Below the pieces are notes generated by a model. It saw only the letters and a list, made by a program, of their open reading frames with translations, made no database searches and had not been told where the DNA came from. A stretch of DNA of 64,000 nucleotides from assembly GCA_964019425.1 (NCBI GenBank), contig OZ025783.1:1-64000 (forward strand). The letters are read 5' to 3'. This DNA comes from Flectonema sp. DT1601 (lineage: Eukaryota). Of this stretch, positions 3,001-61,201 are shown piece after piece (position 1 is the first letter of the stretch; each line of letters begins with the position of its first letter). Position numbers and translations under genes: made by a program.

Positions 3001-6000
3001 GGTTTGCGGGTTTGCGGGTTTGCGGGTTTGCGGGTTTGCGGGTTTGCGGGTTTGCGGGTTTGCGGGTTTGCGGGTTTGCGGGTTTGCGGGTTTGCGGGTT
3101 TGCGGGTTTGCGGGTTTGCGGGTTTGCGGGTTTGCGGGTTTGCGGGTTTGCGGGTTTGCGGGTTTGCGGGTTTGCGGGTTTGCGGGTTTGCGGGTTTGCG
3201 GGTTTGCGGGTTTGCGGGTTTGCGGGTTTGCGGGTTTGCGGGTTTGCGGGTTTGCGGGTTTGCGGGTTTGCGGGTTTGCGGGTTTGCGGGTTTGCGGGTT
3301 TGCGGGTTTGCGGGTTTGCGGGTTTGCGGGTTTGCGGGTTTGCGGGTTTGCGGGTTTGCGGGTTTGCGGGTTTGCGGGTTTGCGGGTTTGCGGGTTTGCG
3401 GGTTTGCGGGTTTGCGGGTTTGCGGGTTTGCGGGTTTGCGGGTTTGCGGGTTTGCGGGTTTGCGGGTTTGCGGGTTTGCGGGTTTGCGGGTTTGCGGGTT
3501 TGCGGGTTTGCGGGTTTGCGGGTTTGCGGGTTTGCGGGTTTGCGGGTTTGCGGGTTTGCGGGTTTGCGGGTTTGCGGGTTTGCGGGTTTGCGGGTTTGCG
3601 GGTTTGCGGGTTTGCGGGTTTGCGGGTTTGCGGGTTTGCGGGTTTGCGGGTTTGCGGGTTTGCGGGTTTGCGGGTTTGCGGGTTTGCGGGTTTGCGGGTT
3701 TGCGGGTTTGCGGGTTTGCGGGTTTGCGGGTTTGCGGGTTTGCGGGTTTGCGGGTTTGCGGGTTTGCGGGTTTGCGGGTTTGCGGGTTTGCGGGTTTGCG
3801 GGTTTGCGGGTTTGCGGGTTTGCGGGTTTGCGGGTTTGCGGGTTTGCGGGTTTGCGGGTTTGCGGGTTTGCGGGTTTGCGGGTTTGCGGGTTTGCGGGTT
3901 TGCGGGTTTGCGGGTTTGCGGGTTTGCGGGTTTGCGGGTTTGCGGGTTTGCGGGTTTGCGGGTTTGCGGGTTTGCGGGTTTGCGGGTTTGCGGGTTTGCG
4001 GGTTTGCGGGTTTGCGGGTTTGCGGGTTTGCGGGTTTGCGGGTTTGCGGGTTTGCGGGTTTGCGGGTTTGCGGGTTTGCGGGTTTGCGGGTTTGCGGGTT
4101 TGCGGGTTTGCGGGTTTGCGGGTTTGCGGGTTTGCGGGTTTGCGGGTTTGCGGGTTTGCGGGTTTGCGGGTTTGCGGGTTTGCGGGTTTGCGGGTTTGCG
4201 GGTTTGCGGGTTTGCGGGTTTGCGGGTTTGCGGGTTTGCGGGTTTGCGGGTTTGCGGGTTTGCGGGTTTGCGGGTTTGCGGGTTTGCGGGTTTGCGGGTT
4301 TGCGGGTTTGCGGGTTTGCGGGTTTGCGGGTTTGCGGGTTTGCGGGTTTGCGGGTTTGCGGGTTTGCGGGTTTGCGGGTTTGCGGGTTTGCGGGTTTGCG
4401 GGTTTGCGGGTTTGCGGGTTTGCGGGTTTGCGGGTTTGCGGGTTTGCGGGTTTGCGGGTTTGCGGGTTTGCGGGTTTGCGGGTTTGCGGGTTTGCGGGTT
4501 TGCGGGTTTGCGGGTTTGCGGGTTTGCGGGTTTGCGGGTTTGCGGGTTTGCGGGTTTGCGGGTTTGCGGGTTTGCGGGTTTGCGGGTTTGCGGGTTTGCG
4601 GGTTTGCGGGTTTGCGGGTTTGCGGGTTTGCGGGTTTGCGGGTTTGCGGGTTTGCGGGTTTGCGGGTTTGCGGGTTTGCGGGTTTGCGGGTTTGCGGGTT
4701 TGCGGGTTTGCGGGTTTGCGGGTTTGCGGGTTTGCGGGTTTGCGGGTTTGCGGGTTTGCGGGTTTGCGGGTTTGCGGGTTTGCGGGTTTGCGGGTTTGCG
4801 GGTTTGCGGGTTTGCGGGTTTGCGGGTTTGCGGGTTTGCGGGTTTGCGGGTTTGCGGGTTTGCGGGTTTGCGGGTTTGCGGGTTTGCGGGTTTGCGGGTT
4901 TGCGGGTTTGCGGGTTTGCGGGTTTGCGGGTTTGCGGGTTTGCGGGTTTGCGGGTTTGCGGGTTTGCGGGTTTGCGGGTTTGCGGGTTTGCGGGTTTGCG
5001 GGTTTGCGGGTTTGCGGGTTTGCGGGTTTGCGGGTTTGCGGGTTTGCGGGTTTGCGGGTTTGCGGGTTTGCGGGTTTGCGGGTTTGCGGGTTTGCGGGTT
5101 TGCGGGTTTGCGGGTTTGCGGGTTTGCGGGTTTGCGGGTTTGCGGGTTTGCGGGTTTGCGGGTTTGCGGGTTTGCGGGTTTGCGGGTTTGCGGGTTTGCG
5201 GGTTTGCGGGTTTGCGGGTTTGCGGGTTTGCGGGTTTGCGGGTTTGCGGGTTTGCGGGTTTGCGGGTTTGCGGGTTTGCGGGTTTGCGGGTTTGCGGGTT
5301 TGCGGGTTTGCGGGTTTGCGGGTTTGCGGGTTTGCGGGTTTGCGGGTTTGCGGGTTTGCGGGTTTGCGGGTTTGCGGGTTTGCGGGTTTGCGGGTTTGCG
5401 GGTTTGCGGGTTTGCGGGTTTGCGGGTTTGCGGGTTTGCGGGTTTGCGGGTTTGCGGGTTTGCGGGTTTGCGGGTTTGCGGGTTTGCGGGTTTGCGGGTT
5501 TGCGGGTTTGCGGGTTTGCGGGTTTGCGGGTTTGCGGGTTTGCGGGTTTGCGGGTTTGCGGGTTTGCGGGTTTGCGGGTTTGCGGGTTTGCGGGTTTGCG
5601 GGTTTGCGGGTTTGCGGGTTTGCGGGTTTGCGGGTTTGCGGGTTTGCGGGTTTGCGGGTTTGCGGGTTTGCGGGTTTGCGGGTTTGCGGGTTTGCGGGTT
5701 TGCGGGTTTGCGGGTTTGCGGGTTTGCGGGTTTGCGGGTTTGCGGGTTTGCGGGTTTGCGGGTTTGCGGGTTTGCGGGTTTGCGGGTTTGCGGGTTTGCG
5801 GGTTTGCGGGTTTGCGGGTTTGCGGGTTTGCGGGTTTGCGGGTTTGCGGGTTTGCGGGTTTGCGGGTTTGCGGGTTTGCGGGTTTGCGGGTTTGCGGGTT
5901 TGCGGGTTTGCGGGTTTGCGGGTTTGCGGGTTTGCGGGTTTGCGGGTTTGCGGGTTTGCGGGTTTGCGGGTTTGCGGGTTTGCGGGTTTGCGGGTTTGCG

Positions 6001-9000
6001 GGTTTGCGGGTTTGCGGGTTTGCGGGTTTGCGGGTTTGCGGGTTTGCGGGTTTGCGGGTTTGCGGGTTTGCGGGTTTGCGGGTTTGCGGGTTTGCGGGTT
6101 TGCGGGTTTGCGGGTTTGCGGGTTTGCGGGTTTGCGGGTTTGCGGGTTTGCGGGTTTGCGGGTTTGCGGGTTTGCGGGTTTGCGGGTTTGCGGGTTTGCG
6201 GGTTTGCGGGTTTGCGGGTTTGCGGGTTTGCGGGTTTGCGGGTTTGCGGGTTTGCGGGTTTGCGGGTTTGCGGGTTTGCGGGTTTGCGGGTTTGCGGGTT
6301 TGCGGGTTTGCGGGTTTGCGGGTTTGCGGGTTTGCGGGTTTGCGGGTTTGCGGGTTTGCGGGTTTGCGGGTTTGCGGGTTTGCGGGTTTGCGGGTTTGCG
6401 GGTTTGCGGGTTTGCGGGTTTGCGGGTTTGCGGGTTTGCGGGTTTGCGGGTTTGCGGGTTTGCGGGTTTGCGGGTTTGCGGGTTTGCGGGTTTGCGGGTT
6501 TGCGGGTTTGCGGGTTTGCGGGTTTGCGGGTTTGCGGGTTTGCGGGTTTGCGGGTTTGCGGGTTTGCGGGTTTGCGGGTTTGCGGGTTTGCGGGTTTGCG
6601 GGTTTGCGGGTTTGCGGGTTTGCGGGTTTGCGGGTTTGCGGGTTTGCGGGTTTGCGGGTTTGCGGGTTTGCGGGTTTGCGGGTTTGCGGGTTTGCGGGTT
6701 TGCGGGTTTGCGGGTTTGCGGGTTTGCGGGTTTGCGGGTTTGCGGGTTTGCGGGTTTGCGGGTTTGCGGGTTTGCGGGTTTGCGGGTTTGCGGGTTTGCG
6801 GGTTTGCGGGTTTGCGGGTTTGCGGGTTTGCGGGTTTGCGGGTTTGCGGGTTTGCGGGTTTGCGGGTTTGCGGGTTTGCGGGTTTGCGGGTTTGCGGGTT
6901 TGCGGGTTTGCGGGTTTGCGGGTTTGCGGGTTTGCGGGTTTGCGGGTTTGCGGGTTTGCGGGTTTGCGGGTTTGCGGGTTTGCGGGTTTGCGGGTTTGCG
7001 GGTTTGCGGGTTTGCGGGTTTGCGGGTTTGCGGGTTTGCGGGTTTGCGGGTTTGCGGGTTTGCGGGTTTGCGGGTTTGCGGGTTTGCGGGTTTGCGGGTT
7101 TGCGGGTTTGCGGGTTTGCGGGTTTGCGGGTTTGCGGGTTTGCGGGTTTGCGGGTTTGCGGGTTTGCGGGTTTGCGGGTTTGCGGGTTTGCGGGTTTGCG
7201 GGTTTGCGGGTTTGCGGGTTTGCGGGTTTGCGGGTTTGCGGGTTTGCGGGTTTGCGGGTTTGCGGGTTTGCGGGTTTGCGGGTTTGCGGGTTTGCGGGTT
7301 TGCGGGTTTGCGGGTTTGCGGGTTTGCGGGTTTGCGGGTTTGCGGGTTTGCGGGTTTGCGGGTTTGCGGGTTTGCGGGTTTGCGGGTTTGCGGGTTTGCG
7401 GGTTTGCGGGTTTGCGGGTTTGCGGGTTTGCGGGTTTGCGGGTTTGCGGGTTTGCGGGTTTGCGGGTTTGCGGGTTTGCGGGTTTGCGGGTTTGCGGGTT
7501 TGCGGGTTTGCGGGTTTGCGGGTTTGCGGGTTTGCGGGTTTGCGGGTTTGCGGGTTTGCGGGTTTGCGGGTTTGCGGGTTTGCGGGTTTGCGGGTTTGCG
7601 GGTTTGCGGGTTTGCGGGTTTGCGGGTTTGCGGGTTTGCGGGTTTGCGGGTTTGCGGGTTTGCGGGTTTGCGGGTTTGCGGGTTTGCGGGTTTGCGGGTT
7701 TGCGGGTTTGCGGGTTTGCGGGTTTGCGGGTTTGCGGGTTTGCGGGTTTGCGGGTTTGCGGGTTTGCGGGTTTGCGGGTTTGCGGGTTTGCGGGTTTGCG
7801 GGTTTGCGGGTTTGCGGGTTTGCGGGTTTGCGGGTTTGCGGGTTTGCGGGTTTGCGGGTTTGCGGGTTTGCGGGTTTGCGGGTTTGCGGGTTTGCGGGTT
7901 TGCGGGTTTGCGGGTTTGCGGGTTTGCGGGTTTGCGGGTTTGCGGGTTTGCGGGTTTGCGGGTTTGCGGGTTTGCGGGTTTGCGGGTTTGCGGGTTTGCG
8001 GGTTTGCGGGTTTGCGGGTTTGCGGGTTTGCGGGTTTGCGGGTTTGCGGGTTTGCGGGTTTGCGGGTTTGCGGGTTTGCGGGTTTGCGGGTTTGCGGGTT
8101 TGCGGGTTTGCGGGTTTGCGGGTTTGCGGGTTTGCGGGTTTGCGGGTTTGCGGGTTTGCGGGTTTGCGGGTTTGCGGGTTTGCGGGTTTGCGGGTTTGCG
8201 GGTTTGCGGGTTTGCGGGTTTGCGGGTTTGCGGGTTTGCGGGTTTGCGGGTTTGCGGGTTTGCGGGTTTGCGGGTTTGCGGGTTTGCGGGTTTGCGGGTT
8301 TGCGGGTTTGCGGGTTTGCGGGTTTGCGGGTTTGCGGGTTTGCGGGTTTGCGGGTTTGCGGGTTTGCGGGTTTGCGGGTTTGCGGGTTTGCGGGTTTGCG
8401 GGTTTGCGGGTTTGCGGGTTTGCGGGTTTGCGGGTTTGCGGGTTTGCGGGTTTGCGGGTTTGCGGGTTTGCGGGTTTGCGGGTTTGCGGGTTTGCGGGTT
8501 TGCGGGTTTGCGGGTTTGCGGGTTTGCGGGTTTGCGGGTTTGCGGGTTTGCGGGTTTGCGGGTTTGCGGGTTTGCGGGTTTGCGGGTTTGCGGGTTTGCG
8601 GGTTTGCGGGTTTGCGGGTTTGCGGGTTTGCGGGTTTGCGGGTTTGCGGGTTTGCGGGTTTGCGGGTTTGCGGGTTTGCGGGTTTGCGGGTTTGCGGGTT
8701 TGCGGGTTTGCGGGTTTGCGGGTTTGCGGGTTTGCGGGTTTGCGGGTTTGCGGGTTTGCGGGTTTGCGGGTTTGCGGGTTTGCGGGTTTGCGGGTTTGCG
8801 GGTTTGCGGGTTTGCGGGTTTGCGGGTTTGCGGGTTTGCGGGTTTGCGGGTTTGCGGGTTTGCGGGTTTGCGGGTTTGCGGGTTTGCGGGTTTGCGGGTT
8901 TGCGGGTTTGCGGGTTTGCGGGTTTGCGGGTTTGCGGGTTTGCGGGTTTGCGGGTTTGCGGGTTTGCGGGTTTGCGGGTTTGCGGGTTTGCGGGTTTGCG

Positions 9001-11876
9001 GGTTTGCGGGTTTGCGGGTTTGCGGGTTTGCGGGTTTGCGGGTTTGCGGGTTTGCGGGTTTGCGGGTTTGCGGGTTTGCGGGTTTGCGGGTTTGCGGGTT
9101 TGCGGGTTTGCGGGTTTGCGGGTTTGCGGGTTTGCGGGTTTGCGGGTTTGCGGGTTTGCGGGTTTGCGGGTTTGCGGGTTTGCGGGTTTGCGGGTTTGCG
9201 GGTTTGCGGGTTTGCGGGTTTGCGGGTTTGCGGGTTTGCGGGTTTGCGGGTTTGCGGGTTTGCGGGTTTGCGGGTTTGCGGGTTTGCGGGTTTGCGGGTT
9301 TGCGGGTTTGCGGGTTTGCGGGTTTGCGGGTTTGCGGGTTTGCGGGTTTGCGGGTTTGCGGGTTTGCGGGTTTGCGGGTTTGCGGGTTTGCGGGTTTGCG
9401 GGTTTGCGGGTTTGCGGGTTTGCGGGTTTGCGGGTTTGCGGGTTTGCGGGTTTGCGGGTTTGCGGGTTTGCGGGTTTGCGGGTTTGCGGGTTTGCGGGTT
9501 TGCGGGTTTGCGGGTTTGCGGGTTTGCGGGTTTGCGGGTTTGCGGGTTTGCGGGTTTGCGGGTTTGCGGGTTTGCGGGTTTGCGGGTTTGCGGGTTTGCG
9601 GGTTTGCGGGTTTGCGGGTTTGCGGGTTTGCGGGTTTGCGGGTTTGCGGGTTTGCGGGTTTGCGGGTTTGCGGGTTTGCGGGTTTGCGGGTTTGCGGGTT
9701 TGCGGGTTTGCGGGTTTGCGGGTTTGCGGGTTTGCGGGTTTGCGGGTTTGCGGGTTTGCGGGTTTGCGGGTTTGCGGGTTTGCGGGTTTGCGGGTTTGCG
9801 GGTTTGCGGGTTTGCGGGTTTGCGGGTTTGCGGGTTTGCGGGTTTGCGGGTTTGCGGGTTTGCGGGTTTGCGGGTTTGCGGGTTTGCGGGTTTGCGGGTT
9901 TGCGGGTTTGCGGGTTTGCGGGTTTGCGGGTTTGCGGGTTTGCGGGTTTGCGGGTTTGCGGGTTTGCGGGTTTGCGGGTTTGCGGGTTTGCGGGTTTGCG
10001 GGTTTGCGGGTTTGCGGGTTTGCGGGTTTGCGGGTTTGCGGGTTTGCGGGTTTGCGGGTTTGCGGGTTTGCGGGTTTGCGGGTTTGCGGGTTTGCGGGTT
10101 TGCGGGTTTGCGGGTTTGCGGGTTTGCGGGTTTGCGGGTTTGCGGGTTTGCGGGTTTGCGGGTTTGCGGGTTTGCGGGTTTGCGGGTTTGCGGGTTTGCG
10201 GGTTTGCGGGTTTGCGGGTTTGCGGGTTTGCGGGTTTGCGGGTTTGCGGGTTTGCGGGTTTGCGGGTTTGCGGGTTTGCGGGTTTGCGGGTTTGCGGGTT
10301 TGCGGGTTTGCGGGTTTGCGGGTTTGCGGGTTTGCGGGTTTGCGGGTTTGCGGGTTTGCGGGTTTGCGGGTTTGCGGGTTTGCGGGTTTGCGGGTTTGCG
10401 GGTTTGCGGGTTTGCGGGTTTGCGGGTTTGCGGGTTTGCGGGTTTGCGGGTTTGCGGGTTTGCGGGTTTGCGGGTTTGCGGGTTTGCGGGTTTGCGGGTT
10501 TGCGGGTTTGCGGGTTTGCGGGTTTGCGGGTTTGCGGGTTTGCGGGTTTGCGGGTTTGCGGGTTTGCGGGTTTGCGGGTTTGCGGGTTTGCGGGTTTGCG
10601 GGTTTGCGGGTTTGCGGGTTTGCGGGTTTGCGGGTTTGCGGGTTTGCGGGTTTGCGGGTTTGCGGGTTTGCGGGTTTGCGGGTTTGCGGGTTTGCGGGTT
10701 TGCGGGTTTGCGGGTTTGCGGGTTTGCGGGTTTGCGGGTTTGCGGGTTTGCGGGTTTGCGGGTTTGCGGGTTTGCGGGTTTGCGGGTTTGCGGGTTTGCG
10801 GGTTTGCGGGTTTGCGGGTTTGCGGGTTTGCGGGTTTGCGGGTTTGCGGGTTTGCGGGTTTGCGGGTTTGCGGGTTTGCGGGTTTGCGGGTTTGCGGGTT
10901 TGCGGGTTTGCGGGTTTGCGGGTTTGCGGGTTTGCGGGTTTGCGGGTTTGCGGGTTTGCGGGTTTGCGGGTTTGCGGGTTTGCGGGTTTGCGGGTTTGCG
11001 GGTTTGCGGGTTTGCGGGTTTGCGGGTTTGCGGGTTTGCGGGTTTGCGGGTTTGCGGGTTTGCGGGTTTGCGGGTTTGCGGGTTTGCGGGTTTGCGGGTT
11101 TGCGGGTTTGCGGGTTTGCGGGTTTGCGGGTTTGCGGGTTTGCGGGTTTGCGGGTTTGCGGGTTTGCGGGTTTGCGGGTTTGCGGGTTTGCGGGTTTGCG
11201 GGTTTGCGGGTTTGCGGGTTTGCGGGTTTGCGGGTTTGCGGGTTTGCGGGTTTGCGGGTTTGCGGGTTTGCGGGTTTGCGGGTTTGCGGGTTTGCGGGTT
11301 TGCGGGTTTGCGGGTTTGCGGGTTTGCGGGTTTGCGGGTTTGCGGGTTTGCGGGTTTGCGGGTTTGCGGGTTTGCGGGTTTGCGGGTTTGCGGGTTTGCG
11401 GGTTTGCGGGTTTGCGGGTTTGCGGGTTTGCGGGTTTGCGGGTTTGCGGGTTTGCGGGTTTGCGGGTTTGCGGGTTTGCGGGTTTGCGGGTTTGCGGGTT
11501 TGCGGGTTTGCGGGTTTGCGGGTTTGCGGGTTTGCGGGTTTGCGGGTTTGCGGGTTTGCGGGTTTGCGGGTTTGCGGGTTTGCGGGTTTGCGGGTTTGCG
11601 GGTTTGCGGGTTTGCGGGTTTGCGGGTTTGCGGGTTTGCGGGTTTGCGGGTTTGCGGGTTTGCGGGTTTGCGGGTTTGCGGGTTTGCGGGTTTGCGGGTT
11701 TGCGGGTTTGCGGGTTTGCGGGTTTGCGGGTTTGCGGGTTTGCGGGTTTGCGGGTTTGCGGGTTTGCGGGTTTGCGGGTTTGCGGGTTTGCGGGTTTGCG
11801 GGTTTGCGGGTTTGCGGGTTTGCGGGTTTGCGGGTTTGCGGGTTTGCGGGTTTGCGGGTTTGCGGGTTTGCGGGTT
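1..11876 (+). repeat. Telomere-like tandem array (TTTGCGGG)n, 8-bp unit, ~1,460 units; first ~210 bp degenerate
   Basis: Read directly. Perfect 8-mer repetition from ~213 to 11876, with one 2-nt irregularity near 1783 (GCGGCGGTTT). Positions 1-212 are a noisy version of the repeat, typical of a low-coverage contig end. Confidence 0.97.
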
Positions 11877-12894
11877 TCTCCTATATAATTGTCAGCATCG
11901 GGGATATTTTGGGTTCTGAGGAAATCCACCAAGTCCTGGGCCAGGTACCCAGGCCAGGCCTTACCTAATTACACACTGGGAATGAGGCTTCTGTGCCTTC
12001 CCGCAAGAAGGTCTGGTTCTAAATGCGTAAGTGTTGACTGGTGTTGCACATTGCGGAAAGAAAAGTGGAGTTTTACCTGTAGCAAGTTGGCGCCACCAAA
12101 TGACAGTCTGATGCGTTTGTGGAAAGAAAATTGCTGCTTTTGCAGTTATTTGCCTTTGTCATGAAATTTTTTTTTTTTATTTTTTACTGCTTTTTGCGCC
12201 ACTCACCTCCAAAAAAACATGGGTATACCTTTTTTATGATTATCTCTCAACCTATCGGTCTTGAAAAGCCTTCACAAATTCTAGGTGGAAGGAAGATTTT
12301 AGTTGGTGCCAAGCTGTCTTTTTGTTATGGTTTAGACAATTTGGGTTGTAATAAATAATCCCATTCATTTTTGCAGTTATTTGCCACCTTTCCACTACCA
12401 ATGCTTATGTAGCACTTCTGGGCAAATTTAAGCTGCCAATTTTCTTCAGTAGGAAGTAAGTAAGAAATGTAAGAAAAAATTTTGCCTAAGGAAAAATGCT
12501 GGATTTTTGCGCCCGGGCAGGTCTAGAAAAGATGGGTAACCATTTTCTTAAAGTATAAAATGTGATGAAAAAATTTTTTTGGTATGGTTTTGAAATTTAG
12601 GTGTATGGTTGCCAATTTAGCAAATTTTTTTTTTTTGAAATAATTTTTTCCTTTTTAATAAATTTTAGGTGCCAAGCTGTCTTTTTGTTACAGTTTAGAC
12701 AATTTGGGTTTTAATAAATAAATTCTTTCACTTTTGCAGTTATTTGCCACTCTGTTACATCTCACTATTCTGAAAAAGCAATCTTTGATTTCATTTTTTT
12801 TTGGGTAAAGGGGTCTTTCCTACACAAATAGTAAACTTGGGGGGGGGCTTGCACTCTTCCCAGCTTAATCATCCATTAGTAGCAAATTTGTTTT

Positions 12895-13220
12895 TCAAGT
12901 TGGACTTTGTACGGGACAGGCAGGCTTTGTACGGGAGAGGTTGGCTTTTATTAGTGGCTCCCCTTGGGGGGGGTTGGAGGGGGGGCTTGCGTTCCGCCAA
13001 GAACTTGGCGGAACGCAAGTTAGACTTTGTACGGGACAGGCAGACTTTGTACGGGGGAGGTTGGCTTTTATTAGTGGCTCCCCCCCCTTGGGGGGGGTTG
13101 GGGGGGGGGCTTGCACTCTTCCCAGCTTAATCATCCATTAGTAGCAAATTTGTTTTTCATACGGGAGAGGTTGGCTTTTATTAGTGGCTCCCCCCCCCTT
13201 GGGGGGGTTGGGGGGGGGTT
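12895..13220 (+). repeat. Internal ~120-bp direct repeats of the Helitron-like element with C(n)-TT-G(n)-TT-G(n) tracts
   Basis: GGTTGGCTTTTATTAGTGGCTC-C(n)TTG(n)TTG(n) occurs at ~12940, ~13060 and ~13170, and again at ~20118 and ~21889. Confidence 0.85.
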
Positions 13221-13810
13221 AACTGTTCGAGTTTGTACGTAAAATACAAATGTTTTGTATCATAGACGATAATTTAACATTAGTTCTGAGATACAGTGAC
13301 TAAAGGTAATGTTAGTGCAGGTATACACTCTGCGATTGACGTAAATACTTTACATTATAATAAATGTTTCTAACTTAGCTGCATACACATCTCTTTTTCC
13401 GTGTTGTCATTCAGTGCAGTACGGAATCGAGTTATTCAATTTTGAATTAATCGTGAGCCCTGGGAAACCAAAACCAGGGTATAATGTAATACGGCAGAGG
13501 GGGGGGGGGGCTTGCGTTCCGCCAAATTCCCCATCCCGTAGTTCTTCTCACATTTCTATTTTATTGAAAATAATGTAATGAACGATAACCTCAGTTCAAT
13601 TCTTAATTTTGTCTTAATTAGTTTAACAATACAAAATGGATGAAGATGGTCATTCCCTTATTAATATAACCAAATTCCTATATTTCCATCCCAGGGTCGC
13701 ACACATTGCAGATACAAGTTCGATAAACCTGTTGTGAATGGTTTATAAAATGCTCAGAATGAAGAAAAATAAAGTGGAAAGACAGGGGGGATGTGACTAA
13801 ATAAATAAAA

Positions 13811-15694
13811 AATGGAATCGACAAAGTGGATCAATGGTGTTTTGAAAACGACATGGCCTTATCAGTCTCCAAAACCTGTGCGCTTAAGATGAATGTTCGC
13901 TCGAAGGGCATAGTACTAAACGATACGTGTAATCGCGAACTGCTTTTCTCTAGATCTGTTGAGGAACGCATGCTTAAACTTGACTATGGTGACATCGAGA
14001 AGCATATCAATCTCAAATCACCCAGACCCATGCTTCAAAGTGGCGAAACTATTCTTGAAATTGGAGGAATCCCAATCAAGACACAAGAAGAACTCGACAA
14101 CTTGATGCTGCAATACGTCGTTCGTGAGGACAGCATTATGGTTGTGAGAACAATATTCAAAACTGCCTTTCTGTTACCGATAGTCGACTCAGTAAAATAC
14201 CTCGGGGTTCACATCGACGACAGGCTCACCTTCCACAAACAAGTAGGCAAGATTCACGAAGAATTAAAGAGGGGGATATCACTTCTGCAGTGCCTCCAGC
14301 CGTACGAACTGGACTACAAGACTCTTAACATGGTTAAGAACCTTTATGTAACCGCGAGAATCTCGTATGCGCTTGACAGTTTTGGTTGGCTGATAAGCAG
14401 CAGCGTTGACAGCATCGACTTCGAACTGAGGAAGGTCGCCAGACTGGTTACTGGATGCAGCAAGTGTACGCCAAGAGAGTTACTGTTGTGGGAGTCTGAC
14501 ATGTATCCTTTTAAACGTCAGATTGAAAAGCAGACAAAAATTGCGTACTACCGGTATAAAGCCATGACTTGGATACCTAATACAAACAGACTCGCCTCAA
14601 CACAAAGCTACTGGGCTGGCCTAATCCCTGGCACTGATAGTCAGCGTGAAAGCCAGTGCCTTGTGCAGCCTGACTCGATGGAACCCTGGGTATCTCCGAC
14701 GAACCTTAGGATTAGCAACAGCTGCGGATTTCCGAAGTCCGCGAACCCTGCGGTGGACAAAGAAAAGTTCATGTCGTACATTGGAACGTTGCCTCCTGTC
14801 GACATGGTAATCAACTGCGATGGCTCCTACTCTGCTTCCGGCGCGGCCGGTGCGGCTCATATTGCCAAGTCACGTAGCGGCCTTCGATCTGCTTACGCGT
14901 CTAGGCTTTATCAAGCTGACTGCAGCTACAGGGCTGAACAACATGCTCTGAAGAACGCGGCTAGACATCTGAGAACAGTGTTTAGCAAAGATCGTTCAAT
15001 GAAATCTGTGAGGATATTCACGGACTCAAAATCCCTTCTGGATGAACTGCTGGGTGGAAGGTGCAGACAGAGGAATACCGAGTCCCTCAAGATACTGGAA
15101 TACCTGCGCATGTGCGAGATGAAAGTGCATTTGCAATTCATCCCCTCGCACATTGGAATCGAGTTTCACGATGAAGTTGACGCGCTTGCAAAGGAAGCAG
15201 CGCACAACAAGAACATCCGACCTGTGCTAGTCAAAGGCACGTACTTCTCGCGATCATCACATGTGAAGCGCTGCATCAAAAAGGATCTGCTTAACGTGAG
15301 TGGTTACACCTGCTACAAACACCTCATCAGAGGCCGTTCCGTTAAATACCCTCCTGGGATGGAAAGAGCCGACGAGATAAGGATAGCGAACTTCCGGACA
15401 GGATGTCACCCGCTAATTCAGAACTGGCGCAAGACGATCGACTGCCCATTTTGTGGCGAACCGTCCTCACAGGTTCACCTGCTGCAGGGATGTCAATCTC
15501 CCAAACTCGACTCTGCCAGGTTCAAAATCCTGGGCTTCTCAACACTGACCGGCAAGTGGGATCGCGATCGAGAACTTATTATTGCCAACGAAATTCCTAA
15601 CCTTGAAGCTCTCTTCACTTTGGCGTGGCTTCCATCACTCGCGTTGATCATAAGGTGGATGGAACAAACATCTAACCTTAGACTTTGGAAGTAA
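13811..15694 (+). mobile_element. 5'-truncated non-LTR retrotransposon (I group / ingi-like): C-terminal RT, RNase H and CCHC zinc knuckle
   Basis: ORF 13826..15694 (open from ~13805) contains late RT motifs (VDQWCFENDMALSVSKT; VKYLGVHIDDRLTF), RNase H motifs (NCDGS, SYRAEQHAL, IFTDSKS, FIPSHIGIEFHDEVDALAK) and CPFCGEPSSQVHLLQGC. Endonuclease and RT core (YADD) are missing. Absent from element copies 2 and 3. Confidence 0.88.
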
Positions 15695-16205
15695 AGTAGG
15701 TGACATGTAGTCGCCAATATCAATTTGTTATTATTTTAGTATTTTCATCATTATCAATCATCTCCTGGTTGGGTAACTGCACATCACCTTCGGTGTTGTC
15801 GCAGTGTCTCATCCAACACTCCTGTCTCCTTCTTCTCCTATTCTCCTTATAAATTTCTCTTGAGGGCAGGCCTTCGGGCTGTTCAAGTGGTCTTTGACCA
15901 CCGCTCTAGTTATATGCTCGACTCTTTGTTTTCCTTATCGATGGTAGGAATGGTAACCGAATTAGCTTCGTGTGTCCAATTTCAAGGACGCGTGACCATT
16001 TATTTTTTCCGTTGCCGCTCTTCTTACGTCCTCAGGCGGAGCCTACCTATGTTTCCCGTGTTTTCCAATTTGTCAGACTTAAGTCAAAAAGAAAGTATTA
16101 AAGAAAGACAAAACAAAGAAGTGAAAAGAACAAAAACAAAGAGTCTGGAAGCACAAACGAGTGTAACCAAAAAAAGAAAAAAAAAAAAAAATGGAAAATC
16201 CCAGG

Positions 16206-16296
16206 GCCTGCATAGCCGAGTGGATATGGTCACCGACCTTAAGTCTATTCGGTAGCCGTGGCACGGGTTCAATTCCCTGTTACGGCATATTTTTTG
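16206..16296 (+). pseudogene. tRNA-Leu-like degenerate module / Pol III promoter inside the element
   Basis: A-box TAGCCGAGTGG, CTTAAG anticodon-like loop, long variable region, B-box GGTTCAATTCC and a T-run terminator. The acceptor stem pairs poorly, so it is not a functional tRNA. Confidence 0.6.
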
Positions 16297-16558
16297 TGTT
16301 TTTCAACCAGGAAAATTAGTAAGAAGAAAACAGCAAGGAAAAGAGTACAAATTTTGTTAGTAAGTGGTATGGTTTTGAAATTGTGGGTGTATGGTTGCCA
16401 ATTTGGTAAAAAAAAAATTCTTCAGAAAAAAATTTTCCTTTATAATATTTTCTGAAAAATTTTATTTTTTCAATTTTTTTTGCTATAGGTTTTTGCTACA
16501 GATCTCCTAAAAAAGATGGGAAGAAAAGTAATAAATGAATAATAAAAAGATTGCGATG

Positions 16559-16627
16559 AGGATACAAAATTGGACTTAACTTAACGCGAGCGAAGCGAGC
16601 GTAAAGTTAAGTCCAATTTTGTATCCT
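16559..16627. other. 69-nt hairpin: 24-bp perfect stem, tandem G.A mismatches and a GCGAAGC cap
   Basis: AGGATACAAAATTGGACTTAACTT (16559-16582) is the exact reverse complement of 16604-16627. The inner part is ACGC-GA-GC-GAA-GC-GA-GCGT. Homologues lie at 21263-21331 and 23029-23097. Confidence 0.93.
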
Positions 16628-16758
16628 GGACGGGTACCTAGCTAGACACAGGGAATAAAAACAGACGTGACTTGGTTGTAAAAATAAGGTTTGTTCAGAA
16701 AGATTTAAAAAAAAAAAATTGTGTGCGAGCAACGCGAGCCTGGAAGGGGTATCTCTAG

Positions 16759-16984
16759 TGCGGGTTTGCGGGTTTGCGGGTTTGCGGGTTTGCGGGTTTG
16801 CGGGTTTGCGGGTTTGCGGGTTTGCGGGTTTGCGGGTTTGCGGGTTTGCGGGTTTGCGGGTTTGCGGGTTTGCGGGTTTGCGGGTTTGCGGGTTTGCGGG
16901 TTTGCGGGTTTGCGGGTTTGCGGGTTTGCGGGTTTGCAAGTTTGCGGGTTTGCGGGTTTGCGGGTTTGCGGGTTTGCGGGTTGC
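16759..16984 (+). repeat. Interstitial (TTTGCGGG)n array, ~28 units
   Basis: Read directly. One variant unit (TTTGCAAG) near 16938. Confidence 0.95.
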
Positions 16985-18047
16985 ATCTGTTGCTGCTGCT
17001 GTTGTTGCTGTTGGTGCAGTTGCGCCTTCAAATCTGCTAACTCCTTCGCCTGCTGATGGCCCTGGGCTAACATCATCTCACGGAACTCCGCCGACCCCGA
17101 CCGCTCCTGGCTTCGCTGTTGCTGTTGCTGTTGCTGGGCCTGTTGTTTTGATACCGTCTGCCGGAGTCTCGCAAGCTCTTCGATACTCTTCTCGGTGATG
17201 CCTTGTTGCTCCGCCAGCTGTGCGCGGAGTTGGGTGACTTGTTCGTCGCTTCTCTGCTGTTGCCCTTTTTGCATTCGGGACAATTCATCCTGCTGTCCCA
17301 GCAAGATGCTCTGGTGGTGTTGTTGTTCCTGCTGCTGCTTCTCCTGCTGCTCCAACCGTCCAACCTGCGATCGCACCACCGCCTCCACCGATCCCTGACG
17401 CTGAGCCACTTGCTGCAACGCCTGTCCCGTCTCCGCCTTCACTCCGGCCAAACGCCGATCCGCTCCCAGCGCGTACTCCTGGGTGGCTTGATAAAGCCCA
17501 CCCAATCCTTCCTCCGAGGTCTGGTGCCTCGCTGCCAACCCGCGGAGCACTTCGTCCGCCTCCACCGTAGTGACGTAGTCACTCATCGCCACGTCCATCG
17601 CCCCGTCGACGTCGTAAAACGTTTCCCGCAAACCCGCAAAGTTTCGCCCGACGGAGGCGAAAGCAGCCGGACTTTGTTCGCGGATGTCGGGCCGTCCAAG
17701 TCCGACATCCCCACCAAAAACGTACTAAACTGCGTTGGCCTTTCTTCAGCCAACACAGTCAGCAAGACAAAGACACCCCGTGCCGATGCCCTGCCGATCA
17801 CTGCCCTCTCGGTCTTCAAAAAACGAGCCAGCAGCTCGTCCGCAAACCACCTCTCACCACTCATGTCGTCCGCCTTTTCCGACGGCATCCACCAGAACCT
17901 CCCTTCTGCCTCCGACATACCTATCGCTTTTAGTGCGGCTTCCTTCCGCGCTCTCAAATCTACGTGGCCTTTTCTTGGGTGTGCCAACCCGGTGCCTTGC
18001 ACCCACAACGACAGAAGACTCGTCGGCATCGAGAATTCATATGACAT
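16985..18047 (-). pseudogene. GC-rich, Gln-rich coiled-coil ORF (possibly ORF1/gag-like of a mobile element), frameshifted and 3'-truncated by the repeat array
   Basis: ORF 17583..18203 (ATG at 18047, MSYEFSMP) and ORF 16705..17631 fuse into one frame (...SGETLRETFYDVDG...) if one copy of the duplicated 8-mer at 17625-17640 is removed. The frame runs into the array at ...QQQMQ. It is clearly more GC-rich than the host genes. Family not recognised. Confidence 0.6.
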
Positions 18048-18426
18048 TATTTCAAACTTAAATGTACAAGTATGAAAAAACCCTGTGATAAAGCGTAATG
18101 AATGACAAAATGGAAAAGTTAAACGATGAATAATTTTCTGATATATTGAGGGACACGTTCCCAAGGATAACTTGTAATAATGCAAGCTTGTTTTACAACA
18201 CACGGAATTTGCACATCTGAAACAATTGTTAAATGTAAAATGCCTTATCTAGAGACAGTGTCTGCAGCCAGGTCGGCGCAACACTTTTTGCCCATGATCG
18301 GACTCGTCTAAATTGAGGAAAAATGATCGAAGATGAGAACTCAAACTTCGTTGCACACTAGAGCAGAAAAGACAAAGGATGATATTACGTAATTTAAAAC
18401 TGCCATTTGCAAGGTTCCCAAGGAAA

Positions 18427-18502
18427 GGTTTGCGGGTTTGCGGGTTTGCGGGTTTGCGGGTTTGCGGGTTTGCGGGTTTGCGGGTTTGCGGGTTTGCGGG
18501 TT
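18427..18502 (+). repeat. Interstitial (TTTGCGGG)n array, ~9 units
   Basis: Read directly. Ends GCGGGTT immediately before element copy 2. Confidence 0.95.
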
Positions 18503-19574
18503 TCTCCTATATAATTGTCAGCATTGGGGATATTTTGGGTTCTGAGGAAATCCACCAAGTCCTGGGCCAGGTACCCAGGTACCCAGGCCAGGCCTCACCT
18601 AATTACACACTAATTCTTCTTTGCATTCCCGCAAGAAGGTCTGGTTCTAAGTGCAACATAAGTGTTGACTGGTGCCACGCATTACGGAAAGAAAAGTAGC
18701 GTTGCATATTGACCTGTAGCAAGTCGGCGCTACCAAATGACAGTCTGATGATCCACGGCGGGCGTTTGCAGAAAGAAATTTGCCTTTGTCACGGAATTTT
18801 TTTTTTTTTTTTTACCACTTTTTGCGCCACTCACCTCCAAAAAAACATGAGTAAATCTTTTTTTATGGTTATCTCTCGATCTATCGGCCCCGAAAAGTCT
18901 TCACAAATTTCTGTGTGGAGAAAAAAGTTTTGCAGTTGTTTGCCAGTCAAAACTTACGCAGCACTGTAAGCTGGCCAGGCCTAGCTACTTCCGTACTGGG
19001 AATGAGGCTTCTGTTTCTTCCTGCTAGCAGGCCTGGTGCTAAGTGCTACGTAATAGTGCCACGCATTGCAGGAATAATATTAGGTCGCCCAGAAGTGCTA
19101 TGTAAGCGCCAGGCCTAGCTACTTCCGTACTGAGAATGAGGCTTCTGTTTCTTCCCGCAAGCAGGCCTGGTGCTGGTGCTAAGTGCTACGTAAGTGTTGA
19201 ATGGTGTCACGCATTACGGGAAGAAAGGTAGAGTGTTGCATGTTAACCTGTTGCAGGTTGGCACTACCAAATGACCTGATGACCCACGGGGGGGCGTTTG
19301 CGGAAAGAGAATTGCTGCTTTTGCATGGGATTTTGTTTTTTTTTTTTTTTACTGCTTTTTGTGCCACTCACTTCCAGAAATCATGGTTACACCTTTTTTA
19401 TGGTTATCCCTTGGCCTATCGATCTCGAAAAGGCTTCACAAATCCCTGAGGAGAATAGGTTTTAGAGTTTTGGTGCCAAGCTGTCTTTTTGTTATGGTTT
19501 AGACAATTTGGGTTTTAATAAATAATTCCTTTCATTTTTGCCACCTTTCTGCAACCAATGCTTATGTAGCACCC

Positions 19575-19828
19575 CTGAGCAAATTTTGGCTGCTAATTTT
19601 CTTCTTGCAAGCAAATTTTAGCTGCTGATTCTCTTCCCGCAAGCAAATTTTAGCTGCTTATTTCTTTCTTGCAGGCAAATTTTAGCTGCTGATTCTCTTC
19701 CCGCAAGCAAATCTTAGCTGCTAATTTTCTTCCCGCAAGCAAATTTTAGCTGCTTATTTTCTTCCCGCAAGCAAATTTTAGCTGCTTACTTTTTTCCTGC
19801 AAACAAATTTAAGCTGCCAATTTTCTTC
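19575..19828 (+). repeat. 32-bp minisatellite, ~8 units (GCAAGCAAATTTTAGCTGCTnATTyTCTTCCC)
   Basis: Unit starts at 19607, 19639, 19671, 19703, 19735, 19767 and 19799. Copy 1 has only a single unit (~12420-12448). Confidence 0.92.
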
Positions 19829-20885
19829 AGTAGGAAGTAAGTAAGATTTATTTTTGCCTAAGGAAAAATGCTGGATTTTTGTGCCCGAGCAGGTCTAAAA
19901 AAGATGGGTAACTTTTTCCTTCTTAATGAGTTTTGGGTTTTAGGTGCCAAGCTGTGAAAAAGCAATCTTTGATTTCATTTCTTTTTGGGTAAAGGGTCTT
20001 TCCTACACAAATAGTTTCAGAACTAACCATTCTTTACAAAACCCAAAATGGCTGTAAACCGTCCAAGTTCGACCTTGGGTGAGGGCATTTTTGTTTTTTC
20101 TTGATTCTTTTTCAGGAGGTTGGCCTTTATTAGTGGCTCCCCCCCCTTGGGGGGGGTTGGGGGGGGGCTGCGTTCCGCCATCCCATAGTCTTCCCACATT
20201 TCTATTTTATTGGAAATAATGAATGATAACCTTATTAATATAACTAAATTCCTATATTCCCAGGGTCGCACACATGCAGATACAGGTTCGATAAACCTGT
20301 TGTAAAATACTTCCAAATGTAACAAACAGATAACCTAAGCCACATATCCAATCATCATAAACCTAGCCGTCGTTTTCGTGCTAGCATATTAATATAACAA
20401 CAACTACAGATATCTTTCAGAAAAACAAAAACAAAGGACTTGATAAAACAGGGTGCAGTGTGCATTTTCAGCTAAGGGAGGACATTTTTCATTTGTCGTC
20501 CCGTTGGGACAGAAAAGTAATAAATAAATAAGAAATTGCGAAAAAAAAAAGAAATTGCTTATATATAACGTTTATTTATTTATTTTTATTTTATTTCTTT
20601 TTTTCATGTTTGATTATTTCCTCTTCATATTATTTTTTTTTTTTTTTTCTGCCTCTCCCTTAATCCTGTTCGTTTCTTTGAAACGAAAATTCATTTGAAT
20701 ATTATTCCTTCGTCAGCATCTTTCATTGTCGCCCTTTGGGCCTGTTAAAAAAAAAAAAAAAAAAAAAAAAAAGAAAGTTTACATCGGGAATAGGGCAGGA
20801 GCCAAAAGCTCCCAGTCCGTTACTTCCCACCTTTTCGAAAACTAATTTATAAATAAAAATTGCAGAAAAGTAATAATAATAAAAA

Positions 20886-20965
20886 GTTGCGATATCCCAG
20901 GGGTAGTGGTATAACCTTCGCCCTGGGGCTGGGTGATCGCTGGTTCGACCCCCTGCCACTGCAAT
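20886..20965 (+). pseudogene. tRNA(Pro-like)-derived degenerate module inside element copy 2 (homologue ~22653-22731)
   Basis: A-box-like TAGTGGTA, CTCGCCCTGGGG anticodon-arm-like segment (copy 3 reading) and B-box GGTTCGACCCC. Stems are degenerate. Confidence 0.45.
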
Positions 20966-21141
20966 AACCCATCGCGCCCGTACACGCAATTAGTTCAAAT
21001 CCCGCGCCCGAAGGGCGTCCAGGGTAGGCACCTGGTAGACTCTCCTACATTAAGACTGGAGGGAAGGGAAAATGGAAGGATTTCCATAAAGAGGCTAAGA
21101 ACACACAAATAAATAAATAAAAAAAAAAAAGAAAATCCCAG

Positions 21142-21216
21142 GGCTGCACAGCCGAGTGGATACCTTAAATCTCTTCGGTAGCCGTGGCAAGGGTTCAATT
21201 CCCAGGCACATTTTTT
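21142..21216 (+). pseudogene. tRNA-Leu-like module with internal deletion (homologue ~22907-22982)
   Basis: CAGCCGAGTGG ... GGTTCAATTCCC ... TTTTTT, homologous to 16206-16296 but shorter in the D/anticodon region. Confidence 0.55.
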
Positions 21217-21455
21217 GTGTTTTTCAACCAGAAAAATTAGTAAGAAGAAAGTAGCAAGGAAAAGGGTACAAAATTGGACTTAACTTAACGCGAGCGAAGC
21301 GAGCGTAAAGTTAAGTTCAAATTTGTACCCTGGACGGGTACCTAGCCAGGGAATAAAAACAGACGTGACTTGGTTGTAAAAATAATGTTTGTTCAGAAAG
21401 CTTAAAAAAAAAAAGTTGTGTGCGAGCAACGCGAGCCTGGAAGGGGTATCTCTAG

Positions 21456-21575
21456 TGCAGGTTTGCGGGTTTGCGGGTTTGCGGGTTTGCGGGTTTGCGG
21501 GTTTGCGGGTTTGCGGGTTTGCGGGTTTGCGGGTTTGCGGGTTTGCGGGTTTGCGGGTTTGCGGGTTTGCGGGTT
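21456..21575 (+). repeat. Interstitial (TTTGCGGG)n array, ~15 units
   Basis: Read directly. Confidence 0.95.
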
Positions 21576-23218
21576 AGTAATTTTTTTCTACAGATCTCCT
21601 AAAAAAGATGGGAACACATAGCTGATCTATCCAAAAGTCTTCATAAGTCCCTGTTAACCATTTTCTTAAAATATAAAAAGTGATAGTAAGTGGTATGGTT
21701 TTGAAATTTAGGTGTATGGCTGCCAATTTAGTTAGCAAAAATTTTCTTTTTGAAATAATTTTTTCCTTCTTAATGAGTTTTGGATTTTAGGTGCCAAGCT
21801 GTGAAAAAGCAATCTTTGATTTCATTTCTTTTTGGGTAAAGGGTCTTTCCTACACAAATAGTTTCAGAACTAACCATTCTTTACAAAAGGTTGGCCTTTA
21901 TTAGTGGCTCCCTTGGGGGGGGTTGGGGGGGGGGCTGCGTTCCGCCATCCCATAGTTCTTCCCACATTTCTATTTTATTGGAAATAATGAACGATAACCT
22001 TATTAATATAACTCGCAAATTCCTATATTCCCATCCCAGGGTCACACACATTGCAGATACAGGTTCGATAAACCTGTTGTAAAATACTTCCAAATGTAAC
22101 AAACAGATAACCTAAGCCACATATCCAATCATCATAAACCTAGCCGTCGTTTTCGTGCTAGCATATTAATATAACAACAACTACAGATATCTTTCAGAAA
22201 AACAAAAACAAAGGATTGATAAAACAGGGTGCAGTGTGCATTTTCAGCTAAGGGAGGACATTTTTCATTTGTCGTCCCGTTGGGACAGAAAAGTAATAAA
22301 TAAATAAAAAGCGAAAAATGCGAAAATGCGAAAAAAAAAAGAAATTGCTTATATATAACGTTTATTTATTTTTATTTTATTTTTTTTTTTCATATTACTT
22401 TTTTTTTTTTTTTCTGCCTCTCCCTTAATCCTGTTCGTTTCTTTGAAACGAAAATTCATTTGAATATTATTCCTTGGTCGGCAACAGTCATTGTCGCCCT
22501 TTGGGCCTGTTGAAAAAAAAAAAAAAAAAAAAAAAAAAAGAAAGTTTACATCGGGAATAGGGCAGGAGCCAAAAGCTCCCAGTCCGTTACTTCCCACCTT
22601 TTCGAAAACTTATTTATAAATAAAAATTGCAGAAAAGTAATAATAATAAAAAGTTGCGATATCCCAGGGGTAGTGGTATAACCCTCGCCCTGGGGCTGGG
22701 TGATCGCTGGTTCGACCCCTGCCACTGCAATAACCCATCGCGCCCGTACACGCAATTAGTTCAAATCCCGCACCCGAAGGGCGTCCAGGGTAGGTACCTG
22801 GTAGACTCTCCTACGTTAAGACTGGGGGGAAGGGAAAATGGAAGGATTTCCATAAAGAGGCTAAAAACACACAAATAAATAAATAAAAAAAAAAAAGAAA
22901 ACCCCAGGGCTGCACAGCCGAGTGGATACCTTAAATCTCTTCGGTAGCCGTGGCAAGGGTTCAATTCCCAGGCACATTTTTTGTGTTTTTCAACCAGAAA
23001 AATTAGTAAGAAGAAAGTAGCAAGGAAAAGGGTACAAAATTGGACTTAACTTAACGCGAGCGAAGCGAGCGTAAAGTTAAGTTCAAATTTGTACCCTGGA
23101 CGGGTACCTAGCCAGGGAATAAAAACAGACGTGACTTGGTTGTAAAAATAATGTTTGTTCAGAAAGCTTAAAAAAAGAAATTGTGCGAGCAACGCGAGCC
23201 TGGAAGGGGTATCTCTAG
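21576..23218 (+). mobile_element. Helitron-like element, copy 3 (5'-deleted, ~1.64 kb)
   Basis: ~21765-23218 is nearly identical to ~19915-21455 of copy 2 (with a ~70-80-bp deletion) and has the same CTAG end followed by TGCGGGTTT. The TCTCCTATATAAT start is missing. Confidence 0.78.
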
Positions 23219-23240
23219 TGCGGGTTTGCGGGTTTGCGGG
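23219..23240 (+). repeat. Short (TTTGCGGG) array, ~3 units; innermost repeat tract
   Basis: TGCGGGTTTGCGGGTTTGCGGG, read directly. Confidence 0.9.
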
Positions 23241-24102
23241 CTTATGTGATGCACATTGTGCTAGGACTGAAAGTACGAGGCAGAGAACTTCTCCACCCGT
23301 CCCTGCGCCTCCGCCTTATTGATCTCGGACCATTTGGGAACTATTGTTTCCCAAAAGCTGCGGATTTTGTAGAGCTTGTCAGCAGGTACGGGGTTGGTGA
23401 CAGTGTAAAACTTTAGATTGGTTCGAATTTAGAGGAACCGATCTCAGGAAGCGAAGTGGGGTGTGTACGCTGGGTCTGATGTACCGTTCCTGTAATCTGA
23501 GATATTTGGCTTATCACAGAGACCCACGAGGATATTGAGTCCTAAAGAGAGTTTGAGTTCAGCTACGTTAAGATTGAGTGCCTAGTTGTTGCTGCAGTGC
23601 GAAATCATCTCATCACCTTTGGGGTGAACACAAGTTCAAATTTCTGCAGTTCCTTCATCAATTTCAGGTCTGACATGTTCTGCAAGGACCGCCGAAACGT
23701 GTGTCGTTTTACCTTGGTGATTTTCTTGCTCCATTTCAGAGGGGAAATGCTTGGCTCTATTGTACTCTCTTCATCGCTCGAAGAAGACTCAGGAGCACCC
23801 AAATCTGGGATAGGTGACCCTACTGAATCATTTTTCGATGGAAATAGTTTTAGGGATTTTAATTTTTGGCTGAAAACATGGGATAGTCATGGGCAACCTG
23901 GCTAAGACTGTCCCCCAGTGCAAAAAAAAAAAAATGAACTTTTTCTCAGAAAAAGCTGGTGATTTTTGCAGCACGATCCCACATAAAATTTGTCGTTTTT
24001 GGGCAGCTCTGGCTCCCTTGTACTCACAAGGTACATTTTTCCCCTTTGTCAAAAAAAAAAAAACGCGAAAGGCCACTATAGTGGCCTTCAGGGCTTAAAG
24101 GG
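23241..24102 (-). mobile_element. Decayed piggyBac DNA transposon (one terminus plus N-terminal transposase pseudogene)
   Basis: The minus strand begins ATAA|CCCTTTAAGCCCTG (piggyBac-type CCC end next to a TTAA-like site), with a 20-bp palindrome AAGGCCACTATAGTGGCCTT at 24069-24088. Manual translation through stops and a frameshift gives FELVFTP..., AELKLSLGLNILVGLCDKPNISDY..., S*DRFL*IRTNLKF..., DKLYKIRSFWE. This matches the piggyBac/PGBD (DDE_Tnp_1_7) N-terminal pattern. Confidence 0.75.
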
Positions 24103-60277: not shown

Positions 60278-60790
60278 TCATTCTGATTGATGAAAGAAAT
60301 GATATTTATATATAAAAAACACAAAACACTAAATTCTTGAAAGTACACACCACTGTAATTCAATCTCATTATGTTTCTCTCCTGAAAAAGAAGAAGGGAC
60401 GTCATACGTATTTTGCTTGTAAACAATGCAATGCGGTTTGTTTGTTTATTTTTATTCTCATTTTTTATTGTTGTCTTCTTCGTAACCGAAATAACTATTT
60501 TGAAGAACGTTATAAAAATAATTCAGATTAGCTTTATATTTCGTTGAAACGCAGGCAGAATCCTGGAGCACATGACCGTAAGATATATCGGCTTTGAAAA
60601 TATTTTCTTCTCCAACTACGTCGGTACAAAAAAAAAAAAAAAAAAACAACAAAATAATAATAGAATTAAAGAAACAGAAATACTTCAGCAGCAATAACGA
60701 AAAAAAACTTTTTTTTTTTTTTTCCAAAACAGATAACCTCAAACCCAGAAGGGTGGGAAAGGAAGGAGAAACTTTATTTATTTATGGGCA

Positions 60791-61040: not shown

Positions 61041-61170
61041 CCCGGCTTTGGGAACTTGTAAATCAGGATAATGTGTGTACAGAAACTGGAATTGATGATT
61101 TTTTTTCGCTGTTCACTACAAGTTGTAACTTTTTCCACTGCCATTTTTTTTTTTTTTTTTTCCTTTTTTT

Positions 61171-61201
<31 letters not shown>

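Follow-up and report, generated by a model that had tools for sequence, protein, structure and literature searches.

Candidate non-autonomous Helitrons with TC and CTAG ends at one bond of a GC-rich tandem repeat in a diplonemid contig

Layout of the locus

The first 64,000 nt of contig OZ025783.1 of Flectonema sp. DT1601 (assembly GCA_964019425.1) were analyzed and are referred to here as the window (64 kb; counts of copies, junctions, and motifs cover both strands). The window opens with a long tandem array of the 8-nt unit TTTGCGGG, which is 62.5% GC and has no A on the strand that carries the insertions. Three related elements (copies 1 to 3) lie within this repeat; two of the three begin with TC, and all three end with CTAG, an end of the CTRR type. 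These TC...CTAG copies are probably non-autonomous Helitrons that entered (TTTGCGGG)n at a single T|T bond. The array, the elements, and their terminal sequences are as follows.

1..11876, plus strand: repeat array A0, (TTTGCGGG)n, ~1470 units
11877..16758, plus strand: copy 1, a TC...CTAG element of ~2.5 kb after subtraction of a nested long interspersed nuclear element (LINE)
11877..11945, plus strand: left terminal sequence, conserved (copies 1 and 2 differ by 1 substitution over 69 nt)
16723..16758, plus strand: right terminal sequence, GCGAGC-N3-GCGAGC then CTAG; no difference among the three copies over these final 36 nt
16759..16982, plus strand: repeat block A1, 28 units, one of them variant
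18427..18502, plus strand: repeat block A2, 9.5 units, all perfect
18503..21455, plus strand: copy 2, a complete TC...CTAG element, 2953 bp, non-coding
21456..21575, plus strand: repeat block A3, 15 units; its single variant base adjoins copy 2
21576..23218, plus strand: copy 3, without a TC start, CTAG end intact
23219..23242, plus strand: repeat block A4, 3 units, followed by unique gene-rich DNA

The left end TCTCCTATATAAT occurs twice in the window (11877 and 18503), each time directly after GCGGGTT, and the right end ...GAAGGGGTATCTCTAG occurs three times (ending at 16758, 21455, and 23218). Both are found on the plus strand and never on the minus strand. An earlier, sequence-only reading of this DNA had given the same starts, ends, and common orientation, and these are exact. 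The CTAG ends are followed by TGCGGG, TGCAGG, and TGCGGG, respectively. All five intact junctions (two starts and three ends) fall at the bond GCGGGTT|TGCGGG, with one variant base in the right flank of copy 2. Copy 3 is in register as well, sitting between GCGGGTT and TGCGGG despite its missing TC start, and the insertion bond is thus T|T in three of three copies. No terminal inverted repeat was found in copies 1 and 2, where no word of at least 8 nt from the first 30 nt recurs inverted in the last 300 nt.

The sequence-only reading had concluded that insertion is site-specific and in register, and that removing an element regenerates the repeat without a target-site duplication (TSD). The shared bond and the in-register joins stand. 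The joins exclude TSD lengths other than multiples of 8 nt; because the target itself has a period of 8 nt, an absent TSD cannot be told from one of 8, 16, or more nucleotides, and the boundary can in addition slide by one T. Register is weak evidence of specificity. Because a T has to follow the cut in a Helitron insertion, the choice in each repeat unit is limited to three N|T bonds, two of them T|T, and the probability that the copies share a bond by chance is 1/9 to 1/4 rather than (1/8)^2.

All three copies lie inside the repeat, whose strand offers no A|T site; the 40.8 kb of AT-rich unique DNA contains no copy. Outside the repeat, the window is densely packed with genes, so selection confounds this absence. 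An ordinary Helitron with a loose N|T preference, piled up in the array by local hopping and by purging among genes, would give the same picture and would be helped by the small choice of N|T bonds in each unit. Among 1,751 insertions of the reconstructed Helitron Helraiser, 46 were at non-AT sites, most prominently TT, AC, and AA, according to the passages covered of PMC4778049. The same passages describe a preference for AT-rich surroundings, and here the target is GC-rich, its inserted strand lacks A, and every copy sits at what is a minor site for Helraiser. We therefore consider accumulation without targeting rather unlikely. T|T is not unusual in itself, being the rule in one Helitron group (see below) and a named minor site of Helraiser. 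The rolling-circle family with a T|T target proposed in the sequence-only reading is partly supported, a non-autonomous Helitron-like family being the best description of the copies.

The copies contain no internal two-unit version of the target: no 10-mer of the repeat occurs inside any of them, and the only 7-mer, ~125 nt from the left end, is at chance level. Pairing of the right end with the target in the manner of an IS608 guide, suggested by folding, was rejected, as 512 of 5000 shuffles equaled it. The exact 34-nt right end had no match in the JGI metagenomes, and BLASTN of the three copies, the spacer between A1 and A2, and the remaining window against 168 collected loci gave no match at E 1e-3. 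Words resembling the left end (TCTCCTA) occur internally at 16503, 21041, 21595, and 22807, and copy 3 begins 19 nt before one of them; they may be relics of nested insertions. Copy 2 also carries internal duplications and a 32-bp minisatellite (19578-19828).

Divergence among the copies

Copies 1 and 2 differ by 1 substitution in 105 nt at their ends (left 1/69, right 0/36) and by 41 in 474 nt in the adjacent interiors (34/317 and 7/157). The ends are thus ~ninefold more conserved than the interiors (Fisher p = 0.003, with boundaries set once the alignment had been seen), a pattern that cis-acting signals at the ends would produce. The repeat flanks are nearly perfect: blocks A1 to A3 carry 3 substitutions in 420 nt, compared with ~19 expected had they been as old as the 5' interiors, which have diverged by 9% (p about 6e-6; the 24-nt block A4 was excluded). 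Copy 3 differs from copy 2 by 1.7% substitutions over the last 1.35 kb. Two of its segments, 21582-21614 and 21655-21755, have a match in copy 1 but none in copy 2, so it is a third mosaic and not a shortened copy 2.

Alternatively, repeat blocks that recombined unequally could have multiplied and rearranged a single old Helitron insertion, like a Y' subtelomeric module, with no targeting involved. Repeat blocks are ready substrates for recombination, the copies are mosaic neighbors in one orientation, copies 2 and 3 are close in sequence, and a shared phase would come free. Spread from one founder predicts even divergence, which is at odds with ends so much better conserved than interiors and with almost perfect flanks, and the base that follows CTAG-TGC is not the same in copies 2 and 3. 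We regard this history as doubtful. End conservation, near-perfect flanks, and the mosaic copy 3 favor separate, recent insertions of already diverged elements into fresh repeat. The sequence-only reading had also argued for independent insertions, partly on the ground that copies 1 and 2 carry different cargo; the conclusion gains from the divergence data, while most of the extra cargo of copy 1 is one nested LINE.

Coding content and the nested LINE

The reverse transcriptase (RT) sequence in copy 1 belongs to a LINE that lies immediately upstream of a tRNA-like module.

13818..16191, plus strand: nested 5'-truncated APE-RT-RNase H LINE with a poly(A) tail, inside copy 1
16206..16287, plus strand: degenerate tRNA-like module, scoring 17.1 bits against the Rfam tRNA family, whose cut-off is 29; no ARAGORN call

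The LINE is truncated within the RT domain, carries its terminal poly(A) at 16169-16191, and is flanked by its own 11-nt duplication (an A-run plus TGGAA; 13807-13817 and 16186-16196). An open reading frame (ORF) at 13805-15694 contains an RNase H domain and is 93% identical to residues 629-1253 of a full APE-RT protein (P0001). That protein belongs to a 101-member cluster whose members match at 90-100%; named relatives of the nested LINE are from Flectonema neradi (38-45%). Copies 2 and 3 retain the empty site, directly preceding the tRNA-like module. Once the LINE is subtracted, copy 1 is non-coding, as are the other two copies. The LINE is a separate, later event and does not supply the enzyme of the TC...CTAG element, and its RT was rejected as a mobilizer of that element. 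The sequence-only reading had held that a long partner encoding RT would refute a Helitron; this does not apply, as the RT that is present is the LINE's own.

A different origin for the copies, as non-autonomous partners of a repeat-specific retroelement with coincidental TC and CTAG ends, was also considered. Such a partner could be target-primed, like SART and TRAS, or could use a tyrosine recombinase (YR), like TATE. A fixed 3' end and a copy 3 that is 5'-truncated yet in register are reminiscent of target-primed insertion, an 8-nt TSD is compatible with the junctions, and TATE-like ORFs exist in Diplonema papillatum. TATE elements occupy a fixed telomere position in kinetoplastids, as described in the passages covered of PMC6681497. 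The TC...CTAG element itself showed no RT or YR of its own; its 3' end has neither poly(A) nor any other tail repeat, and split direct repeats were not seen. Both Helitron end motifs and hairpins are present, the only RT is in a LINE with its own duplication, and the left junction of copy 3 can be a deletion at TT microhomology. A retroelement partner is accordingly very unlikely.

The transposase that would mobilize the copies was sought in viral and metagenomic data. RepHel ORFs were found at 2 of 35 IMG/VR loci, and a search with one of them returned 87 proteins, none labeled diplonemid, which is weak evidence. D. papillatum has Helitron-like ORFs (PMC10161547). The two IMG/VR ORFs (L190:3093-8120, with PF14214 and PF05970, and L200:2264-3919, with PF14214) are on contigs binned as giant viruses, and their relatives are mostly unnamed metagenomic proteins.

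Shorter modules resembling tRNA or RNA polymerase III boxes occur in copy 2 (20895-20960 and 21138-21210), with equivalents in copy 3; only 16206-16287 reaches a weak Rfam tRNA match. A Rfam search over 11800-64000 returned weak, chance-level matches only. The nested LINE is of a recently active diplonemid type with a ~90-residue insert near the end of its RT domain.

Terminal motif and hairpins

The motif GCGAGC-AAC-GCGAGC, placed 19 nt ahead of CTAG, consists of direct repeats and is not a Watson-Crick palindrome, and the terminal hairpin proposed from it in the sequence-only reading gains no significance from folding. Its two halves could pair solely through tandem G.A mismatches. A strong hairpin with the same kind of motif at its tip lies further upstream.

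16559..16627, plus strand (also 21263-21331 and 23029-23097): long hairpin of ~30 bp with a GCGAGC-N3-GCGAGC tip, from folding

This hairpin, with z scores of -10.4 and -8.9, stops 121-131 nt short of the 3' end of the element and keeps 97.8% of its pairs among the copies, with one compensatory pair change. The pattern GCGAGC-N3-GCGAGC...CTAG is generic and therefore not diagnostic of the elements, as ~390 IMG/VR loci on unrelated viral contigs carry it (124 of them listed), and the next base was T in only 15 of 134 matches. Several contigs from giant-virus bins (L012, L024, L025, L048, L049, and L065) carry dispersed, hairpin-like repeats of the form GCGAGC-N3-GCGAGC...CCTAGCGA in both orientations, and L104-L106 share this motif.

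Proposed mechanism and evidence against it

If the copies are Helitrons, a RepHel transposase encoded elsewhere in the diplonemid genome would act on them in trans. Following the model for Helraiser, its HUH nuclease would nick the left end and peel off one strand, stopping at the right end, perhaps with the help of hairpins. Transfer of this single strand into the G-rich strand of the repeat would then join it between GCGGGTT and TGCGGG, with nothing duplicated. The ends, phase, orientation, end conservation, near-perfect flanks, lack of coding capacity, and the nested LINE as a later event are observed; we infer rolling-circle chemistry, a separate insertion for each copy, and an active preference for the repeat.

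A number of observations weigh against this interpretation. The mechanism is read from end motifs, and such motifs are called widespread and prone to false positives by the authors of HELIANO, in the part of PMC11417382 covered. The terminal 71 nt fold no better than shuffles (ViennaRNA; z 0.16, -0.58, and 0.21 for the three copies, with G.A pairing outside the model), and the single compensatory change in the long hairpin does not beat shuffles (152/500). Rep or helicase families were found in none of 72 element reading frames (at least 45 residues, outside the LINE and spacer ORFs), where two sub-threshold matches were irrelevant, and none of the 87 RepHel proteins matches the window; non-autonomous copies are expected to lack RepHel. 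The common bond, at the probabilities given above, and the common strand (1/4) can be chance. When the age of the flanks is judged from the divergence of the 3' ends alone (1.8% per lineage), 7.6 substitutions are expected and the fresh-flank test gives p = 0.055, and repeats can be homogenized. Finally, copies 2 and 3 are only 1.7% apart, and three neighboring copies in one window are compatible with spread by recombination.

Spacer X and polarity of the array

The interval between blocks A1 and A2, termed spacer X, is not part of the elements.

16983..18426, minus strand: spacer X, comprising the 5' part of a multicopy coiled-coil gene (ATG at 18047) and the region upstream of it; block A1 cuts the gene off on its 3' side
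17625..17640, minus strand: two exact repeat units in the X reading frame, of polarity opposite to all arrays, between two GAAAC words

The gene family of X is multicopy and often decayed. It is found only in unnamed ENA contigs and comprises six related clusters with 12 members (P0067, P0069, and P0072 among the relatives); X has no Pfam family and no usable Atlas match. The gene may be ORF1 of another mobile element. Both of its junctions are out of register, with GGTT on either side. At the two-unit site, X has a 17-nt excess over its relative P0069, and the reading frame shifts there. The insertion resembles a short stretch of interstitial telomeric repeat added where a break was repaired; such insertions arise through telomerase or through templated capture from a neighboring array.

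Array A0 has several traits of a telomere: it starts at base 1, its first ~208 nt are degenerate, runs of 196 and 1261 perfect units follow, and the unit combines a T-run with a G-run. A few words in the degenerate tip resemble a long-read hairpin adapter, which would mark the tip of a read or contig. The G-rich strand is on the plus strand and runs 5' to 3' from the window start toward the genes. This is the reverse of a telomerase-type telomere at the left end, in which the G-rich strand runs 5' to 3' toward the chromosome end (as set out in the covered part of PMC13085455). The sequence-only reading had called the repeat telomere-like, and this polarity does not support a telomere. In the ordinary reading, the array is either an inverted internal block or a long satellite, subtelomeric or centromeric, at which the contig broke, and the target of the elements may be a satellite instead of a telomere.

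No tandem TTAGGG, the product of Euglena telomerase according to the covered text of PMC3622300, was found in the 64-kb window. Neither a diplonemid telomere motif nor a TTTGCGGG telomere was found in the literature, including the supplements of PMC10767889 and PMC10161547, with TeloBase itself outside this coverage. Four units of the repeat had no match in IMG/VR, and a 27-nt repeat pattern was found at 44 metagenome loci with 3-13 units each.

A more radical possibility is that the window start is a true chromosome end. This diplonemid would then cap its chromosomes with a repeat of reversed polarity, whose 3' terminal strand is the C-rich (CCCGCAAA)n. Helitrons with canonical ends would have independently evolved targeting of a single bond of the G-rich strand, building the subtelomere inward, and the enzyme that makes the ends would have left copy 3, X, and the two extra units in X as healing scars. 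We consider this quite unlikely. It is kept alive by two oddities. One is that both X and copy 3 are truncated on the outer side, where the array caps them at GCGGG-TT; TT microhomology explains these edges cheaply. The other is the two-unit insertion in X, in opposite polarity, described above. The candidate repeat points the wrong way, and the question of what caps diplonemid chromosomes is thereby raised.

Comparison with known systems

Sequence-specific targeting by Helitrons was thought absent until it was reported for a divergent third clade in Paramecium. In P. aurelia, telomere-capping Helitrons insert in C4A2 telomeric repeats in an absolute orientation and have many non-autonomous copies (PMC13085455, passages covered). 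The claim of the sequence-only reading that no equivalent had been described is thus overtaken by this report, and also by the fixed hexamer position of TATE (PMC6681497, in part). Like the elements described here, the Paramecium Helitrons have a short repeat, of the same polarity, on either side, a fixed orientation, a long array before the left end with short blocks after right ends, and many ORF-less copies with internal satellites and duplications. Their left end faces outward, which holds here only if the window start faces a chromosome end. As far as the covered passages go, they differ in ending with CCAA, in a transposase of the third clade, in inserting in the C-rich strand, and in having a proven telomere as target. 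The present elements have TC and CTAG ends, a G-rich inserted strand, one exact bond, a euglenozoan host, and only a candidate telomere. In Paramecium, C-rich repeats come after the right end, and on this ground the authors ruled out that telomerase had capped a linear intermediate (same passages). Here, G-rich repeats follow the right end but also precede the left end, and capping would not produce the latter. The karyotype of one diplonemid, with 118 small chromosomes, is like that of Paramecium (PMC13598402, in part).

Among Helitron-like elements (HLE), the HLE1 group, as represented by the covered parts of PMC4778049 (Helraiser) and PMC11417382 (HELIANO), shares with the present elements a 5' TC, a 3' CTAG, the lack of terminal inverted repeats, and a T after the insertion. 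HLE1 usually inserts at A|T in AT-rich DNA, in contrast to T|T in a GC-rich repeat, and has a short terminal hairpin, whereas the terminal motif here is not a Watson-Crick hairpin and the long hairpin is further upstream. The A|T target is described as a preference and not as absolute (PMC4778049, same part). Because T|T departs from this preference and no autonomous partner was seen, we call the elements HLE1-like and do not file them as HLE1. The HLE2 group (Helitron2, Helentron) has a T|T target but also short terminal inverted repeats, which are lacking here, and the present ends are of HLE1 type.

TATE of Leishmania (PMC6681497) and SART and TRAS (PMC10088271) likewise insert in a telomeric repeat at a fixed position and on one strand; in the passages covered, they are retroelements with other ends and with RT plus YR or endonuclease. 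Helitrons are concentrated at chromosome ends near tandem repeats in Hydractinia (10.1101/2024.11.21.624632) and Drosophila biarmipes (PMC10088271), and the passages covered report no fixed bond in a short repeat. No diplonemid repeat-targeting Helitron was found in literature whose coverage stopped short of the Paramecium supplements. New here are the canonical TC and CTAG ends, the targeting of the G-rich strand, and the euglenozoan host; the repeat-targeting behavior itself has already been described in Paramecium. We judge the chances evenly balanced that repeat targeting arose independently in an HLE1-type family, whatever the repeat is. If so, a textbook TC/CTAG family at one bond of a GC-rich repeat in another supergroup would mean that targeting evolves repeatedly. 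It would offer a direct way to map target choice by HUH transposases and possibly a tool for site-specific insertion.

Other features of the window

A neighboring gene encodes a TBC GAP whose best named match is from D. papillatum (52%), well above the next named matches. Taken with the F. neradi relatives of the nested LINE, this points to a diplonemid host distinct from both species. At 60779-62785, inverted arrays of a 20-bp unit lie ~1.7 kb apart and adjoin a gap of 200 N (62786-62985); these look like a foldback or terminal inverted repeat element.

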